The notes beneath the pieces were generated by a model, which was not told where the DNA came from, searched no databases, and saw only the letters and a list, made by a program, of their open reading frames with translations. Shown in pieces: positions 49,745 to 57,121 of a stretch of DNA of 64,000 nt. The stretch lies in assembly GCF_058153355.1 (NCBI RefSeq), contig NZ_CM177019.1. One strand, given 5' to 3'. The position numbers and the translations under genes are program-made. Each line of letters opens with the position of its first letter. Within the stretch, counting starts at the first letter, position 1.

Positions 49745-50017
49745 ATGAATATTTATACCTTTGATTTTGATGAGATTGAGAGTCAGGAGGATTTTTATCG
49801 CGACTTTAGCCAAACCTTTGGTCTGGCAAAAGATAAAGTACGCGATCTCGACTCTCTATGGGATGTGTTAATGAACGATGTCCTGCCGCTACCACTTGAG
49901 ATTGAATTTGTTCATCTGGGAGAGAAAACGCGTCGCCGTTTTGGCGCATTAATATTGCTGTTTGATGAGGCAGAGGAAGAGCTGGAAGGGCATTTGCGTT
50001 TTAATGTTCGTCATTAG
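49745..50017 (+). CDS. yhcO: Barstar-like small protein YhcO
   Basis: 90 aa [27 protein letters not shown]... Confidence 0.85.
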
Positions 50018-50072
50018 CGCAAAAAAAAGCCCCCGAACCGGGGGCAATATCGTCGGACAAGACGATGAGGGT

Positions 50073-50336
50073 TTATTTGTACAGTTCAGCCGTAGCGTGC
50101 CAGGTGTCACCGCTACGAGCTTCAGTAATCTGGTAGGCCGTTGCGCCTTTCTCTTCCGCTTTTTTGTTCAGCATTTCACGCATATCCATTGGCGAAGACG
50201 CCACACCACTTACGGATACGGTCCCGATTGCTTCACGATTTTGTGCTTGTGCAGCATCAATGGAGTCGGCAGCGAATGCACCGAAAGAGAGAACAGAAAG
50301 TACGCTTAATGCAGCAACAGTGGTTTTGATTTTCAT
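50073..50336 (-). CDS. yhcN: Periplasmic stress-induced protein YhcN (DUF1471)
   Basis: 87 aa from ATG 50336 with signal peptide MKIKTTVAALSVLSVLSFGAFA; GAGG SD; hairpin 50032-50056 followed by T-run on minus strand acts as its terminator. Confidence 0.85.
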   Translation of the reverse strand: MKIKTTVAALSVLSVLSFGAFAADSIDAAQAQNREAIGTVSVSGVASSPMDMREMLNKKAEEKGATAYQITEARSGDTWHATAELYK

Positions 50337-50700
50337 GATTTTTACCTCGACATAATCTTTTAGCTGGGCCTTTGTTTCGTGACCCATATCACAAAATCAA
50401 GTATACACTAATTATTGAACTAATTAATACCACGCTAACTGTTTCAGTTGATACTAAGTGTTAAAAGTGTGAGTTTTAATAACAAAAAAGAATTAAAAAC
50501 ACGGTTATTTATTATTAATTCTATTATTTTCAATTAGATAATGAATTTTGCATAATGTGCTTTTTTTAACTCATGTATTCATTATGTGAATGATGTGTCG
50601 CGCTAAAACGCACTATCCGTTAAATTAATCGTAGGAGAAAGCAGGGGGATGAGAGGGAAAAGCAACATTTTCCCCGCCGCCAGAAGCGACGGGGCAGAGA

Positions 50701-51174
<474 letters not shown>

Positions 51175-51530
51175 TCACCCGATATGGTGGTTGATACAAC
51201 ATTATTGTGCATACAGATGAATTTTTATGCAAACAGTCAGCCCTGAAGAAGGCTGAAATAATGTTATGAAAGAGCGGGATTTTATCAAATTTCGTTATTG
51301 AGAAACATGCCTGCGTCACGGCATGCAAATTCTGCTTAAAAGTAAATTAATTGTTATCAAATTGATGTTGTTTTGGCTGAACGGTAGGGTATATTGTCAC
51401 CACCTGTTGGAATGTTGCGCTAATGCATAAGCGACTGTTAATTACGTAAGTTAGGTTCCTGATTACGGCAATTAAATGCATAAACGCTAAACTTGCGTGA
51501 CTACACATTCTTGAGATGTGGTCATTGTAA

Positions 51531-52544
<1,014 letters not shown>

Positions 52545-52569
52545 TTGATTAGCGGATAATAAAAAACCG

Positions 52570-52581
52570 GAGCACAGACTC
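52570..52581. repeat. IS4 target-site duplication, left copy (gagcacagactc)
   Basis: Identical 12 bp directly flanks both IS ends (other copy 54008-54019). Confidence 0.85.
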
Positions 52582-54007
52582 TAATGCCAGTCAGTTAAGC
52601 AACTGACTGGCTCTTTTTCGGGGCTGTGGGGTATTTCCAGGGCCTCTCCTTTACCACTCTCGGGAAGGCCCTTTCCCTTCTTGTCGGTAATTTCACAAGT
52701 TGTCCCATACTTGCAAGATCGCGCATCAGCTCCGGTATACGTCCCGGTGAAGCGCCCTGCAATGTCATCAGCATTCTCATCACCATTCCGCATGATTCTG
52801 AGAAACTCAGTTGATTCGGCCAGTAACCTTTCAGATGTTCCGCCATTTTAATCATCTGATATCTCACCAGATTATAAGCCAGTAAGACACCCCACAGCTC
52901 TTGCTCCACAAGCTCCGGCTTTTTACTTCTCAGCGTCAGCCTGCTCAGTTGCATCGTCTGTTTTATCTCCCTGTATCCCAGTTCGATTTCCCAGCGATGA
53001 CTGTACAGATCCGCCATTTCTCCTCCGGGGAAGCGCATGGCGTCCGTCATCGACGTCAGCAGATGGCAGACTTTTCCTTTGCGCGTCACGGTCAGCAGGC
53101 GGGCTGTCACTTCATTTCCCAGTCCCGGCCACTTTTTTCGTGCCTGCGGGCTGGTTTTCAGCTTCACCAGATGATCGCCTTTACCCAGTTTTCTGATCTC
53201 TTCATATTGCGCTCCCTTTCTGAGAGGTATCATCCAGTGGCGGTGTTCTCCCGCCAGGCTCCAGGCATTTAACAGTCCCAGTGAGTAATAACCTTTATCC
53301 ATTAACGTCAGAGTGTTATCGCCGGTTTGTTCTATAAGTTGCTCAGCAAGCTCATTTTCGCTGTTCTTCATCGTGCCGAAGGCTGCAGCCGTCAGCAGAT
53401 GGCTGGTCAGTTCCATCTGGCAGACCATTTTGACCTGCGGGTAGAGCGCCGGGTTCCCGGCATGTGTCTGGCGGGGGAAGGCTGCATCGTTCTCTGGTGT
53501 ATCCGGTGTGCGCCAGAACACACCATCGATGGCCAGCAGGGTCAGGCCGCACCAGTGCGGATGCGGCGTGGCGTTATGCCAGAGCTGCGCTGTTTTCGTG
53601 AACACGCGGCGGACAGCCTCACTTCCCAGGCGCTGGCGGGCCTGAATAACGGCACTGGGGGCAACGAAGGGGCGATTGCCCGGCAGCATGATGTCCAGGC
53701 GATTCACAATCTGGTGAAGAGGTTCTTTACGCTCAAGCGCCATGCCAACAATACACCAGACCATCATTTCGAGGGGAAGACGGCGCTTGCGTAGCGTTAC
53801 AGTACCTGATTCGGCAAGGCAACGAGAGATGAGTTCGGGGTCGAGGTAATCCCCCAGAGAAGTCAGTGGGTTACGCAGAGAATCGTAACGGGATACCAGA
53901 TCAAGAGCCTGTCCAATGTGCATAAAAAAATCCGGAAACAAGTGAGCGTTTCCGGATTCTTACACAGCCACTGGATCGGTCAACTGATCCTTAACTGATC
54001 GGCATTA
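52582..54007 (-). mobile_element. IS4 insertion sequence, complete (1426 bp)
   Basis: Terminal 18 bp inverted repeats taatgccagtcagttaag (left) / reverse complement of cttaactgatcggcatta (right), 16/18 match; single DDE transposase ORF; flanked by 12 bp direct repeats. Confidence 0.9.
52595..53923 (-). CDS. IS4 transposase
   Basis: 442 aa from ATG 53923 ([40 protein letters not shown]...), DDE transposase; length and N-terminus match my recollection of IS4 InsG. Confidence 0.88.
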
Positions 54008-54019
54008 GAGCACAGACTC
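54008..54019. repeat. IS4 target-site duplication, right copy (gagcacagactc)
   Basis: See left copy; joining the flanks rebuilds aaaaaaccggagcacagactccggtttttt, the mdh/degS bidirectional terminator. Confidence 0.85.
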
Positions 54020-54044
54020 CGGTTTTTTGTTTTGAGCGCACGAC

Positions 54045-55112
54045 TTAATTGGTTGCCGGATATTCCTGAATGGTGACCTGCAGCGTTAACTGCTTATCAT
54101 CACGCATCACGACAACCGGGATCACCGAGCCAGGGCGAATTTCCGCCACCTGATCCATCGTCTCCAGAGCAGAGATGGCCGGTTTGTTATCCACCGAAAT
54201 AATCAAATCATTGACCTGTATACCCGCATTCGCCGCCGGGCCGTCAGGTGACACTTCATTAACCACGATCCCTTGCAGTTGATCTATACCACCGCCCTGC
54301 GCGTGCAGTGGTGCGATCTCACGTCCGCCGATACCAATGTAGCCGCGGATCACGCGACCATCGCGGATCAGCTTATCCATAATTTTGGTTGCTAACTGGA
54401 AAGGAATCGCAAAGCCGATGCCTTCCGGCGTTTCGCCATCGTTACTCTTATCAAACGACAGCGTGTTAATGCCCATCAGTTCGCCCAGCGAGTTCACCAG
54501 TGCGCCGCCAGAGTTACCGTGGTTAATGGAAGCATCGGTTTGCAGGAAGTTTTGCCGCCCGGTCGGGTTCAGACCAATTCGACCCGTGGCACTAATAATC
54601 CCCTGGGTAATGGTCTGCCCGAGGTTGTACGGGTTACCGATCGCCAGTACCACGTCACCAATGTGCGGTACGCGACGTGCATTGATTGGAATGGTAGGTA
54701 AACCGCCAGTGGCATTAATTTTAAGTACCGCCAGATCGGTTAGAGAGTCAGATCCCACCAGCAATGCTTCAAATACACGTCCATCTTGTAAGGCGACGAT
54801 GATCTGATCGGCGTCGTTGATGACGTGTTTATTGGTGATGATATAACCGCGTTGATCCATGATTACACCGGATCCCAGGGTGCGGATCTCAAGCTGGTTG
54901 TGAGAGTTGGTGTTCAAACCACGGTTGTAAACGTTAACCACCGCTGGCGCGGCGCGGCGAACCGCCAGATTATAGCTGGCAGGCGTCTCATCGGTACTGT
55001 CAAATTGCGGAGTGGAAAGCGGGTTAAGGCTGCGCAGTGAAGGCATGGCAACCAGCAGAATAGCGCCGACAATTAATCCAATCGCAACGGAACGTAAGAG
55101 CTTCACAAACAT
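54045..55112 (-). CDS. degS: Periplasmic serine endoprotease DegS
   Basis: 355 aa, N-terminal TM anchor, trypsin-like domain (GNSGGAL), single PDZ. Confidence 0.95.
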   Translation of the reverse strand: MFVKLLRSVAIGLIVGAILLVAMPSLRSLNPLSTPQFDSTDETPASYNLAVRRAAPAVVNVYNRGLNTNSHNQLEIRTLGSGVIMDQRGYIITNKHVINDADQIIVALQDGRVFEALLVGSDSLTDLAVLKINATGGLPTIPINARRVPHIGDVVLAIGNPYNLGQTITQGIISATGRIGLNPTGRQNFLQTDASINHGNSGGALVNSLGELMGINTLSFDKSNDGETPEGIGFAIPFQLATKIMDKLIRDGRVIRGYIGIGGREIAPLHAQGGGIDQLQGIVVNEVSPDGPAANAGIQVNDLIISVDNKPAISALETMDQVAEIRPGSVIPVVVMRDDKQLTLQVTIQEYPATN

Positions 55113-55201
55113 GATGGAGGCGTCATTAAAAAAGGGAACGGCAGCAGCATACCACGAGTTAACCGGACATCACACGTCAGCCTGATGCCCGGTTTACGAC
55201 A

Positions 55202-56569
55202 TTAACGCATCAGCAAATAGATGCTTTCATTGCCGCGTACAATTTGCAGGGCGATGATGGCCGGTTTTGCCGCCAGCACTTTACGCATTTCAGCAATCGA
55301 GTTCACCCGATCGCGGTTGACGCCAATGATCACATCGTCTTTTTGCAAGCCTGCCTGAGCAGCTGGGCTTCCTTTGACAACCTCATCGATCTTAATACCT
55401 TTGCCGCCATCTTTTAGCTGACCATCGCTCAACGTTGCACCTTCCAGCGCTGGCGTGATCATTTCAGCGCTGGCCGACGAAGAGGTGCTGGTATCGAGCG
55501 TCACTTCTACTTCCAGTGGTTTGCCGTTACGCAGCAGGCCAAGCTTCACTTTCGTGCCCGGCTCGGTGGTTGCGATACGAGAGCGCAACTCAGCAAAGCT
55601 ATTCAGCGGTTTGCCGTTGAGGCTGGTAATAATATCGCCCGCTTTGATGCCCGCTTTTGCCGAGCCAGAACCTGGCAACACTTCGCTGACAAACGCGCCA
55701 CGCTGCACGTCAAGGTTGAAGGCTTTGGCGATATCGGCACTCATCTCGGTGCCTTTGATGCCTAACAGACCGCGTTTGATTTCACCAAAGTCGATAAGCT
55801 GCTGCGCCAGTGTTCGCGCCATATTACTGGGGATGGCAAATCCAATCCCGACGCTCCCACCGCCAGGCGCAAGGATTGCAGTGTTGATGCCAATTAACTC
55901 ACCGTTAAGGTTTAACAGTGCACCGCCGGAGTTACCGCGGTTAATGGAAGCATCTGTCTGGATAAAGTTTTCAAGACCTTCAAGATTCAACCCGCTGCGG
56001 CCTAATGCGGAAACAATGCCAGAGGTGGCGGTTTGCCCAAGGCCAAATGGGTTACCGACTGCCACGGCAAAATCACCGACGCGCAGTTTGTCTGAGTCGG
56101 CAATGGCGATTTGCGTTAATTTACTCGGGTTTTGAATTTGCAAAAGGGCGATATCGCTTTGGTCATCGCTACCAATCAGTTTTGCATCAAACTCGCGCCC
56201 ATCATTGAGTTGAATACTGATTTTCTGTGCCTGTTTAATTACATGGTTGTTGGTCAGAACATAGCCTTTACTGGCGTTGATGATGACACCGGAGCCTAAA
56301 CCTTCGAAAGGTTGTGCAGGTTGATCCGGTAAATCATCACCAAAAAACTTTTTGAATTCTTCCGGGATTTTCTGTCCCTGACTGGCCGTTCCTTCCACTC
56401 GTACGCTCACCACTGCCGGAAGCACTTTTTCCAGCATTGGGGCCAGACTGGGGAGAGGGGCCTGATCGGCAACCTGGCCTGGAATCGACGCAACGGCCTG
56501 AAATGACGCCGAGAGAGTTAACCCGACACTTAACGCTAATGCACTCAACAGCTGGGTTTGTTTTTTCAT
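55202..56569 (-). CDS. degQ: Periplasmic serine endoprotease DegQ
   Basis: 455 aa from ATG 56569 (MKKQTQLLSALALSVGLTLSASFQAVA signal peptide), GNSGGAL catalytic motif, two PDZ domains. Confidence 0.95.
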   Translation of the reverse strand: MKKQTQLLSALALSVGLTLSASFQAVASIPGQVADQAPLPSLAPMLEKVLPAVVSVRVEGTASQGQKIPEEFKKFFGDDLPDQPAQPFEGLGSGVIINASKGYVLTNNHVIKQAQKISIQLNDGREFDAKLIGSDDQSDIALLQIQNPSKLTQIAIADSDKLRVGDFAVAVGNPFGLGQTATSGIVSALGRSGLNLEGLENFIQTDASINRGNSGGALLNLNGELIGINTAILAPGGGSVGIGFAIPSNMARTLAQQLIDFGEIKRGLLGIKGTEMSADIAKAFNLDVQRGAFVSEVLPGSGSAKAGIKAGDIITSLNGKPLNSFAELRSRIATTEPGTKVKLGLLRNGKPLEVEVTLDTSTSSSASAEMITPALEGATLSDGQLKDGGKGIKIDEVVKGSPAAQAGLQKDDVIIGVNRDRVNSIAEMRKVLAAKPAIIALQIVRGNESIYLLMR

Positions 56570-56722
56570 TATTCCTGCTCTCGTACCTGAATGATAAGAA
56601 AAGAGATTCAAAACAGTTTGATGTTATTGAATTTTCAGACGGCTAACAATGAGACACCAGATTAAATGATAGTCGGGGAGGGAAAGAAGAGGAGGGCGCA
56701 ATGGCTGCGCCCGAAAAATAAA

Positions 56723-57121
56723 TTAGTCGCGCTTCGCGCCAGTACGCAGCAGGCCTGACGCGCCTTCAGAATAGTCGCGTGGCATTTGCACCGGTGCCTG
56801 ATCGTTGCTGGCTTCGGACTCTGCCAGACGATTACGGAACGGGTTTGCTTCAGCAGACAGTTCCGGCAGCAGGCTGCTGGAGCTTTTCGCCATGTGTTGA
56901 TACAGCTGGCGATAGTCGTGCGCCATGGTATCCAGTAATTCCGCGCTGCGGGCAAAGTGGCTAACCAGCTCTTCGCGATACTCGTCCAGTTCAGCTTTAT
57001 TCTTTTCCAGTTCGTACTGCAACGCCTGTTGCTGGCGTAGTTTACGATTACCAAAACGCATGGCCACAGCACCAATAATGATGCCGACGACTAACCCAAT
57101 TAGCGCATATTCCCAGGTCAT
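56723..57121 (-). CDS. yhcB: Inner-membrane cell-division-associated protein YhcB (ZapG)
   Basis: 132 aa from second ATG (GGGAG SD 6 nt upstream), N-terminal TM helix then coiled coil. Confidence 0.9.
   Translation of the reverse strand: MTWEYALIGLVVGIIIGAVAMRFGNRKLRQQQALQYELEKNKAELDEYREELVSHFARSAELLDTMAHDYRQLYQHMAKSSSSLLPELSAEANPFRNRLAESEASNDQAPVQMPRDYSEGASGLLRTGAKRD

Follow-up and report, generated by a model that had tools for sequence, protein, structure and literature searches.

The 64-kb window, by which we mean the whole stretch of DNA that was analysed, is collinear with E. coli across an rRNA operon, acrEF, yhdP, aaeB, argR, mdh, degS and degQ, and no extra insertions relative to E. 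coli were found within its positions 1-50000. The convergent genes mdh and degS, both intact and of the same length as in K-12, are separated by an insertion sequence that occupies the centre of the hairpin between them (Table 1). The insertion point lies exactly 37 nt from each stop codon (52544 for mdh and 54045 for degS), and the ancestral hairpin is placed symmetrically within its 62-nt spacer. The window is only 98.7-99.6% identical to the nearest of 5,426 complete RefSeq E. coli genomes, which indicates that its lineage lies outside this set; its closest flank matches are bovine and food isolates.

Table 1. Coordinates of the features discussed, given as window positions unless another record is named.
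Feature	Position	Strand	Details
mdh CDS	51606-52544	+	intact, 939 nt (K-12 length)
mdh-side remnant of the ancestral terminator	52561-52581	+	six A, CCG, duplicated 12 bp
Target-site duplication, mdh-side copy	52570-52581		GAGCACAGACTC
IS4 element	52582-54007	- (strand of the transposase gene)	1426 bp
Terminal inverted repeat near the transposase stop	52582-52599	+	TAATGCCAGTCAGTTAAG
Inward terminator-like hairpin, mdh side	52586-52618	+	GCCAGUCAGUU-AAGC-AACUGACUGGC, then UCUUUUU; 11-bp stem, 4-nt loop, -18.7 kcal/mol
IS4 transposase CDS	52595-53923	-	442 aa plus stop; ATG 53923, stop 52595-52597
Inward hairpin, degS side	53924-53961	-	UCCGGAAAC-GCUCACUU-GUUUCCGGA, then seven U; core stem 53956-53931, U-run 53930-53924; -23.5 kcal/mol including A:U extension
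Promoter-like site	53983-53956	-	TTGACC-16 nt-AAGAAT, TG before the -10; consensus scan only
Terminal inverted repeat near the transposase start	54007-53990	-	TAATGCCGATCAGTTAAG
Target-site duplication, degS-side copy	54008-54019		GAGCACAGACTC
degS-side remnant of the ancestral terminator	54008-54028	+	duplicated 12 bp, CGG, six T
degS CDS	54045-55112	-	intact, 1068 nt (K-12 length)
raiA/bamD IS4 hot spot, terminator downstream of bamD	2501-3978 of L001 (E. coli NZ_OZ040539.1)		13-bp duplication CAGCTCAAGGCTG

The inserted element is IS4 itself, the well-known E. coli insertion sequence, present as an intact copy. An earlier reading made from the sequence only had described a 1426-bp element with imperfect 18-bp inverted repeats and a flanking 12-bp direct repeat, and had taken it to be IS4 unless its identity to that element proved poor. 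The structure was borne out in full, and comparison with the K-12 IS4 gave 1423/1426 identical nucleotides (99.8%), with 3 substitutions and no indels, so that poor identity no longer speaks against the assignment. The possibility that the element is merely IS4-like was rejected on the same figure. The two terminal repeats match each other at 16 of 18 positions and are identical to the ends of the K-12 IS4; they are the only inverted-repeat matches in the 64-kb window, where 0.03 would be expected by chance, and no further IS4 ends were found there. The direct repeat is identical at all 12 positions and both of its copies abut the element, the chance of an exact 12-mer abutting both ends being ~6e-8. 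Its length falls within the 11-13 bp of the ISfinder definition of IS4, and the duplications at the other IS4 sites examined measure 12 or 13 bp. The window's element carries 1 substitution relative to an IS4 copy located between raiA and bamD. The K-12 IS4 (insG, annotated at NC_000913.3 4502090-4503515), which is the founding member of both the IS4 family and the IS4 subgroup, has the same length, terminal repeats and 12-bp duplication and differs only in its location, between yjgZ and nanX; the earlier statement that K-12 carries its IS4 elsewhere is correct. With intact ends and ORF, a perfect duplication and several natural independent insertions, the IS4 copy is apparently transposition-competent.

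The 442-aa DDE transposase that had been noticed in the open reading frames holds up equally well: it differs from the K-12 IS4 transposase at 2 of 442 residues and matches the Pfam models Nterm_IS4 (3e-33) and DDE_Tnp_1 (9e-32). Its catalytic residues, assigned by motif, are D133, D209 and E314, separated by 75 and 104 residues, and a Y(2)R(3)E(6)K signature spans residues 307-321. De Palmenaer et al. (2008, PMC2266710) define the IS4 family by one ORF for a DDE transposase, in which the catalytic residues are spaced D(60-110)D(100-150)E, and by Y(2)R(3)E(6)K; the single ORF, the DDE spacing and the signature are all found here. An in-frame TTG lies upstream at 53941 and yields a 448-aa form in some RefSeq annotations; in public annotation, the ATG (442 aa) is used for K-12, NCTC10973 and E4, and the TTG (448 aa) for IAI39, VR50 and GN25. 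We favour the ATG because the TTG falls inside the loop and 3′ arm of a conserved hairpin, with a U-run between the TTG and the ATG.

When the flanks are joined, they give AAAAAACCGGAGCACAGACTCCGGTTTTTT, which is letter for letter the mdh/degS intergenic sequence of K-12 MG1655, where the spacer is uninterrupted (...ATAAAAAACCGGAGCACAGACTCCGGTTTTTTGTTTTGAGC...). The earlier proposal that the joined flanks rebuild a terminator-like hairpin is thereby confirmed. The ancestral site, AAAAAA-CCGGAG-CACAGA-CTCCGG-TTTTTT, combines a 6-bp GC stem and a 6-nt loop with an A:U extension, and its folding energies including this extension, read in the mdh and the degS sense, are -15.4 and -16.6 kcal/mol, respectively. 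It has the anatomy of a bidirectional intrinsic terminator, namely a GC-rich hairpin with an A-tract and a T-tract, placed between convergent genes and near both stops, and is accordingly a predicted bidirectional Rho-independent terminator shared by mdh and degS. The supplements of one Term-seq paper (PMC12207403) held no entry for mdh or degS. We envisage that IS4 entered through the usual cut-and-paste mechanism of DDE transposases, with the target cut at a 12-bp stagger, and that it landed at the exact centre of the intrinsic terminator common to the two genes. Each side of the insertion now keeps only a 3-bp GAG/CUC stem, and the 6-bp GC stem is destroyed.

The choice of this site is explained by the target preference of IS4 rather than by chance. 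Other IS4 copies match the junction query for 24-25 nt beyond the IS ends, and at raiA/bamD the arrangement reads AAAAAAACGG, a first copy of the duplication CAGCTCAAGGCTG, IS4, the second copy of CAGCTCAAGGCTG and then CCGTTTTG, which again amounts to a terminator built of A-tract, hairpin and T-tract. The site of the K-12 IS4 has a 12-bp duplication and AAA-N20-TTT spacing and lacks a hairpin, from which it follows that a hairpin is not strictly required; the mdh/degS, raiA/bamD and K-12 sites all fit AAA-N20-TTT, and at mdh/degS the 12-bp duplication occupies the middle of this motif. A search of single genomes representing each bacterial species for the exact 29-nt end of IS4 returned 69 loci (L009-L077) with no E. 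coli record among them, and we derived the target pattern from 64 non-redundant IS4 flanks of E. coli and other Enterobacterales. Adenine occupies positions -19 and -18 in 55 and position -20 in 51 of the 64 flanks, positions -15 to -9 are GC-rich, and guanine stands at -4 in 43/64 and at -1 in 50/64. The ends of the 12-bp duplication are complementary in 43 of the 64 flanks, against 16 expected. For the sites represented by both flanks (L019, L036, L065, L010, L045 and raiA/bamD, with one mismatch in the repeat at L010 and L045), the empty site, whether reconstructed or joined by hand, forms a hairpin with a T-run behind it, as in AAAAAACACCCGCCTGAAGCGGGTGTTTTTTTT for L065. Moreover, 41 of 58 insertion points lie 18-96 nt past a stop codon, compared with 7.9% of random positions in the same loci, when open frames of at least 120 codons reading towards the IS are considered. 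At mdh/degS the duplication has G as its first and C as its last base, the usual arrangement being C...G, and its fit to the consensus is therefore imperfect.

A preference of this kind has a history in the literature. Mayaux et al., in 1984, are said to have described IS4 in the pheST attenuator together with a pseudo-palindromic 5′-AAA-N20-TTT-3′ target consensus and 11-13 bp duplications, and Mahillon and Chandler, in 1998, reportedly gave the same consensus and duplication lengths. For the IS4 subgroup, a 'spectacular' specificity for the target arms has been noted (De Palmenaer et al. 2008, PMC2266710). The pattern in our 64 flanks agrees with, and extends, both the AAA-N20-TTT consensus and this arm specificity. 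Relative to the published consensus, what is added here is that the arms mostly coincide with the A- and T-tracts bordering a GC-rich hairpin, that the sites lie just past stop codons and that the element itself bears predicted inward terminators. Within the collection of papers searched, nothing directly relevant was found on the IS4 target consensus or on IS4 in combination with terminators. Targeting by IS4 of sites composed of an A-tract, a GC-rich palindrome and a T-tract is well supported, and what the element prefers would then be the anatomy of a two-way Rho-independent terminator.

Both ends of IS4 carry an inward-facing hairpin followed by a U-run, beginning 5 nt inside the element on the mdh side and 52 nt inside it on the degS side. 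The plus-strand hairpin was flagged by a terminator scan (52586-52611). The minus-strand hairpin, which directly precedes the transposase ATG, was not listed by that scan, likely because greedy A:U stem extension consumed the U-run, and rests instead on folding and on a comparison among relatives. Its conservation extends to IS4 relatives of only 75% identity, with 98.5% of cells paired and with compensatory double changes at 2 of 10 pairs (G-C to A-U; C-G to U-A), while the loop varies freely and the U-run is retained; in a covariation test on a small sample of 7 sequences, the observed score was attained in 8 of 500 shuffles. This end of the element contains a single promoter-like site, whose -10 hexamer directly adjoins the 5′ arm of the hairpin, so that the native transposase transcript would start inside the arm. 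On this arrangement, the 3′ end of mdh transcripts would move downstream by ~30 nt, into the end of the IS, and that of degS transcripts by ~90 nt, to a point immediately ahead of the transposase ATG. A native transposase transcript, being without a complete arm, would escape termination and degS read-through would be stopped, so that the hairpin may keep external transcription from reaching the transposase gene. We infer from folding and consensus scanning both that the IS4 hairpins terminate transcription and where the transposase promoter lies.

A comparable design is known from IS10 and IS50, in which read-through transcripts fold so as to hide the transposase start and the native transcript starts inside the structure. 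IS4 resembles them in that its predicted -10 abuts the 5′ arm and only transcripts from outside would contain the whole hairpin. Unlike in IS10 and IS50, however, the hairpin of IS4 is followed by seven U, which gives it the look of a true, albeit predicted, terminator and not just of a fold masking the ribosome-binding site.

Among the 5,426 complete E. coli genomes sampled, to which the window's genome does not belong, a query spanning both junctions is fully covered in 9 (AR_0013, IAI39, N32, OZ546943, CE10, GN25, VR50, NCTC10973 and E4). The flank-joined query, which represents the empty site, aligns over at least 80% of its length in 5,425 genomes, the best matches being single uninterrupted pieces, and the site is empty in about 99.8% of the genomes, including the strains with flanks closest to the window's. 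The insertion is therefore derived and rare, and the caveat that the IS-bearing arrangement might be ancestral is settled by the uninterrupted spacer of K-12 and by these counts. It is also already known as such, in that it represents a known element at the expected kind of site and the same insertion is present and annotated in IAI39, CE10 and VR50; in RefSeq, the element at mdh/degS is labelled IS4-like or as an IS4 family transposase, for instance in IAI39 and VR50. IS4 is found between raiA and bamD in 318 of the 5,426 genomes, far more commonly than at mdh/degS.

The window and the five carriers compared with it agree in their junctions, 12-bp duplication and orientation, and differ in both the flanks and the element. 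VR50 and NCTC10973 both have the K-12 sequence for 1.69 kb to either side of the element, and even so their IS4 copies are 11 positions apart. GN25 combines a K-12-type IS4 with flanks of another haplotype, E4 an NCTC10973-type IS4 with those of a further one, and IAI39 and the window each have a flank/IS4 combination of their own. The flanks of the window differ from those of the carriers at 14-24 positions per 1.69 kb and the IS4 variants at 3-9 positions, except that the degS side of E4 is not comparable, as a 1-bp deletion in a T-run shifts the ungapped comparison and its 1,252 apparent differences are an artefact. The same insertion on different flank haplotypes and with different IS4 variants indicates that IS4 has entered this hot spot recurrently, and the sequences are most simply read as the outcome of at least four separate insertions at a single nucleotide position. 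The orientation is the same in all carriers, but the perhaps 4-6 independent events are too few for this to be statistically decisive. Part of this pattern may stem from recombination, or from gene conversion between IS4 copies, but the whole is not readily explained in this way. Since the insertion is homoplasic, it makes a poor lineage marker across phylogroups. The earlier suggestion that this copy is a strain marker needs qualifying, as the site combines unrelated flank haplotypes with different IS4 variants.

Taken together, we consider it highly probable that a canonical IS4 inserted by target preference into the mdh/degS terminator, a recurrent hot spot that would have been struck independently in several E. 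coli lineages, and that the element brings predicted replacement terminators of its own. The view that a single ancient insertion passed between lineages through homologous recombination, or was retained by descent and lost in the other lineages, appears distinctly unlikely. It draws on the junction, the 12-bp duplication and the orientation being exactly common to all carriers, and on the near-identical scores of IAI39, CE10, AR_0013, N32 and OZ546943, which may be one clone. Identical junctions are, however, readily explained by the strong target specificity of IS4, and a single event sits poorly with the 11 differences between the VR50 and NCTC10973 copies within identical flanks, with the K-12-type IS4 of GN25 on a different haplotype and with the near-universal empty site. 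That the IS-bearing arrangement is ancestral and IS4 was precisely excised elsewhere is a formal possibility of negligible probability, which we rejected as effectively refuted by the rarity of the insertion and the prevalence of the empty site; the presence of different IS4 variants at the site and the perfect 12-bp duplication, as expected of a fairly recent insertion, also stand against it.

A separate question is whether the insertion matters for its neighbours. The sequence-only reading had argued that each gene keeps only half of the terminator followed by IS sequence, and that 3′-end formation, mRNA stability or read-through antisense to the transposase might change. The stem is indeed split, but the description omits the inward hairpin and U-run, i.e. 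the predicted terminator, that IS4 adds at each end. As for antisense transcription, the orientation is right for mdh, whereas read-through from degS would be sense to the transposase. It is unlikely, in our view, that terminator loss alters the stability of the mdh or degS mRNA or leads to convergent read-through with antisense effects. Such an effect would be in keeping with the loss of the 6-bp GC stem, of which only GAG/CUC is left in each copy, and with the IS sequence that the 3′ UTRs necessarily gain, that of degS being predicted to grow from ~45 to ~120 nt. Against it stand the strong hairpins and U-runs only 5 and 52 nt inside the element, one of them conserved with compensatory changes, and the intactness of both coding sequences, together with the persistence of the same insertion in several natural lineages. 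A scan of positions 50000-57000 at the Rfam gathering threshold matched no RNA family and hence gives no sign that a known small RNA was disrupted. With an inward hairpin and U-run at each IS4 end, we do not expect 3′ ends or read-through to change greatly; the insertion is predicted to cost mdh and degS little, and the net phenotype is probably near neutral.

The preferred reading, insertion by target preference with replacement of the terminator, invites a more general proposal, which we put forward tentatively as possible: IS4 and its close Enterobacterales relatives may be dedicated terminator-seeking elements that cut the centre of a hairpin and bring inward terminators at both ends, so that the neighbours keep terminators and the transposase is insulated. 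Whether the terminator swap works as predicted is uncertain. If the proposal is true, terminators would serve as near-neutral safe havens, which would explain the recurrent same-site, same-orientation insertions at mdh/degS (9 genomes) and raiA/bamD (318); IS4 would then be a compact natural example of a transposon that minimises damage to its host, with a predictable list of hot spots. There are also practical consequences, as mdh is a classic MLST and phylogeny locus, and an IS4 located 37 nt past its stop can break an mdh-degS PCR or assembly.

Other mobile elements approach the ends of genes in a similar manner. IS231A, which targets GGG-N5-CCC flanked by A/T tracts, insertion sequences that target REP elements (PMC1525189) and class C group II introns, which insert after intrinsic terminators, all resemble IS4 in using harmless intergenic palindromes at gene 3′ ends. 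The transposase lineage or the mechanism of all these elements is unlike that of IS4, which, in contrast to them, cleaves the hairpin at its midpoint and generates duplications of 11-13 bp. Within E. coli, IAI39, CE10, VR50, NCTC10973, E4, GN25, AR_0013, N32 and OZ546943 are the closest counterparts of the window, with the same mdh/degS IS4 insertion on differing flank haplotypes and in differing IS4 variants.

The exact 29-nt IS4 end occurs in many Enterobacterales, with at least 16 copies in Kosakonia oryziphila and 8 in Budvicia diplopodorum, and also in Silvania, Buttiauxella, Dryocola, Pectobacterium, Yersinia thracica and Rosenbergiella, which makes the distribution of IS4 much wider than E. 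coli and Shigella. Some of the matches look like cross-contamination or mis-binning and not like true host range: the IS4 flank is identical in Citrobacter sp. 18056 (L066) and Chryseobacterium sp. 18061 (L077), which come from the same project, and a bare IS4 contig of 1403 bp (L046) is part of an Oscillospiraceae MAG (Firmicutes). MITE-like, internally deleted derivatives of IS4 that keep both ends were also encountered, in Salmonella enterica subsp. arizonae (L010, 594 bp), Erwinia endophytica (L036, 566 bp) and Pantoea agglomerans (L044, 452 bp). No duplication was found at L044. The Salmonella derivative corresponds to IS4 positions 1-403 plus 1236-1426 at about 91% identity and has a near-perfect duplication, that of Erwinia has a perfect 12-bp one, and both lie in terminator-like hairpins.
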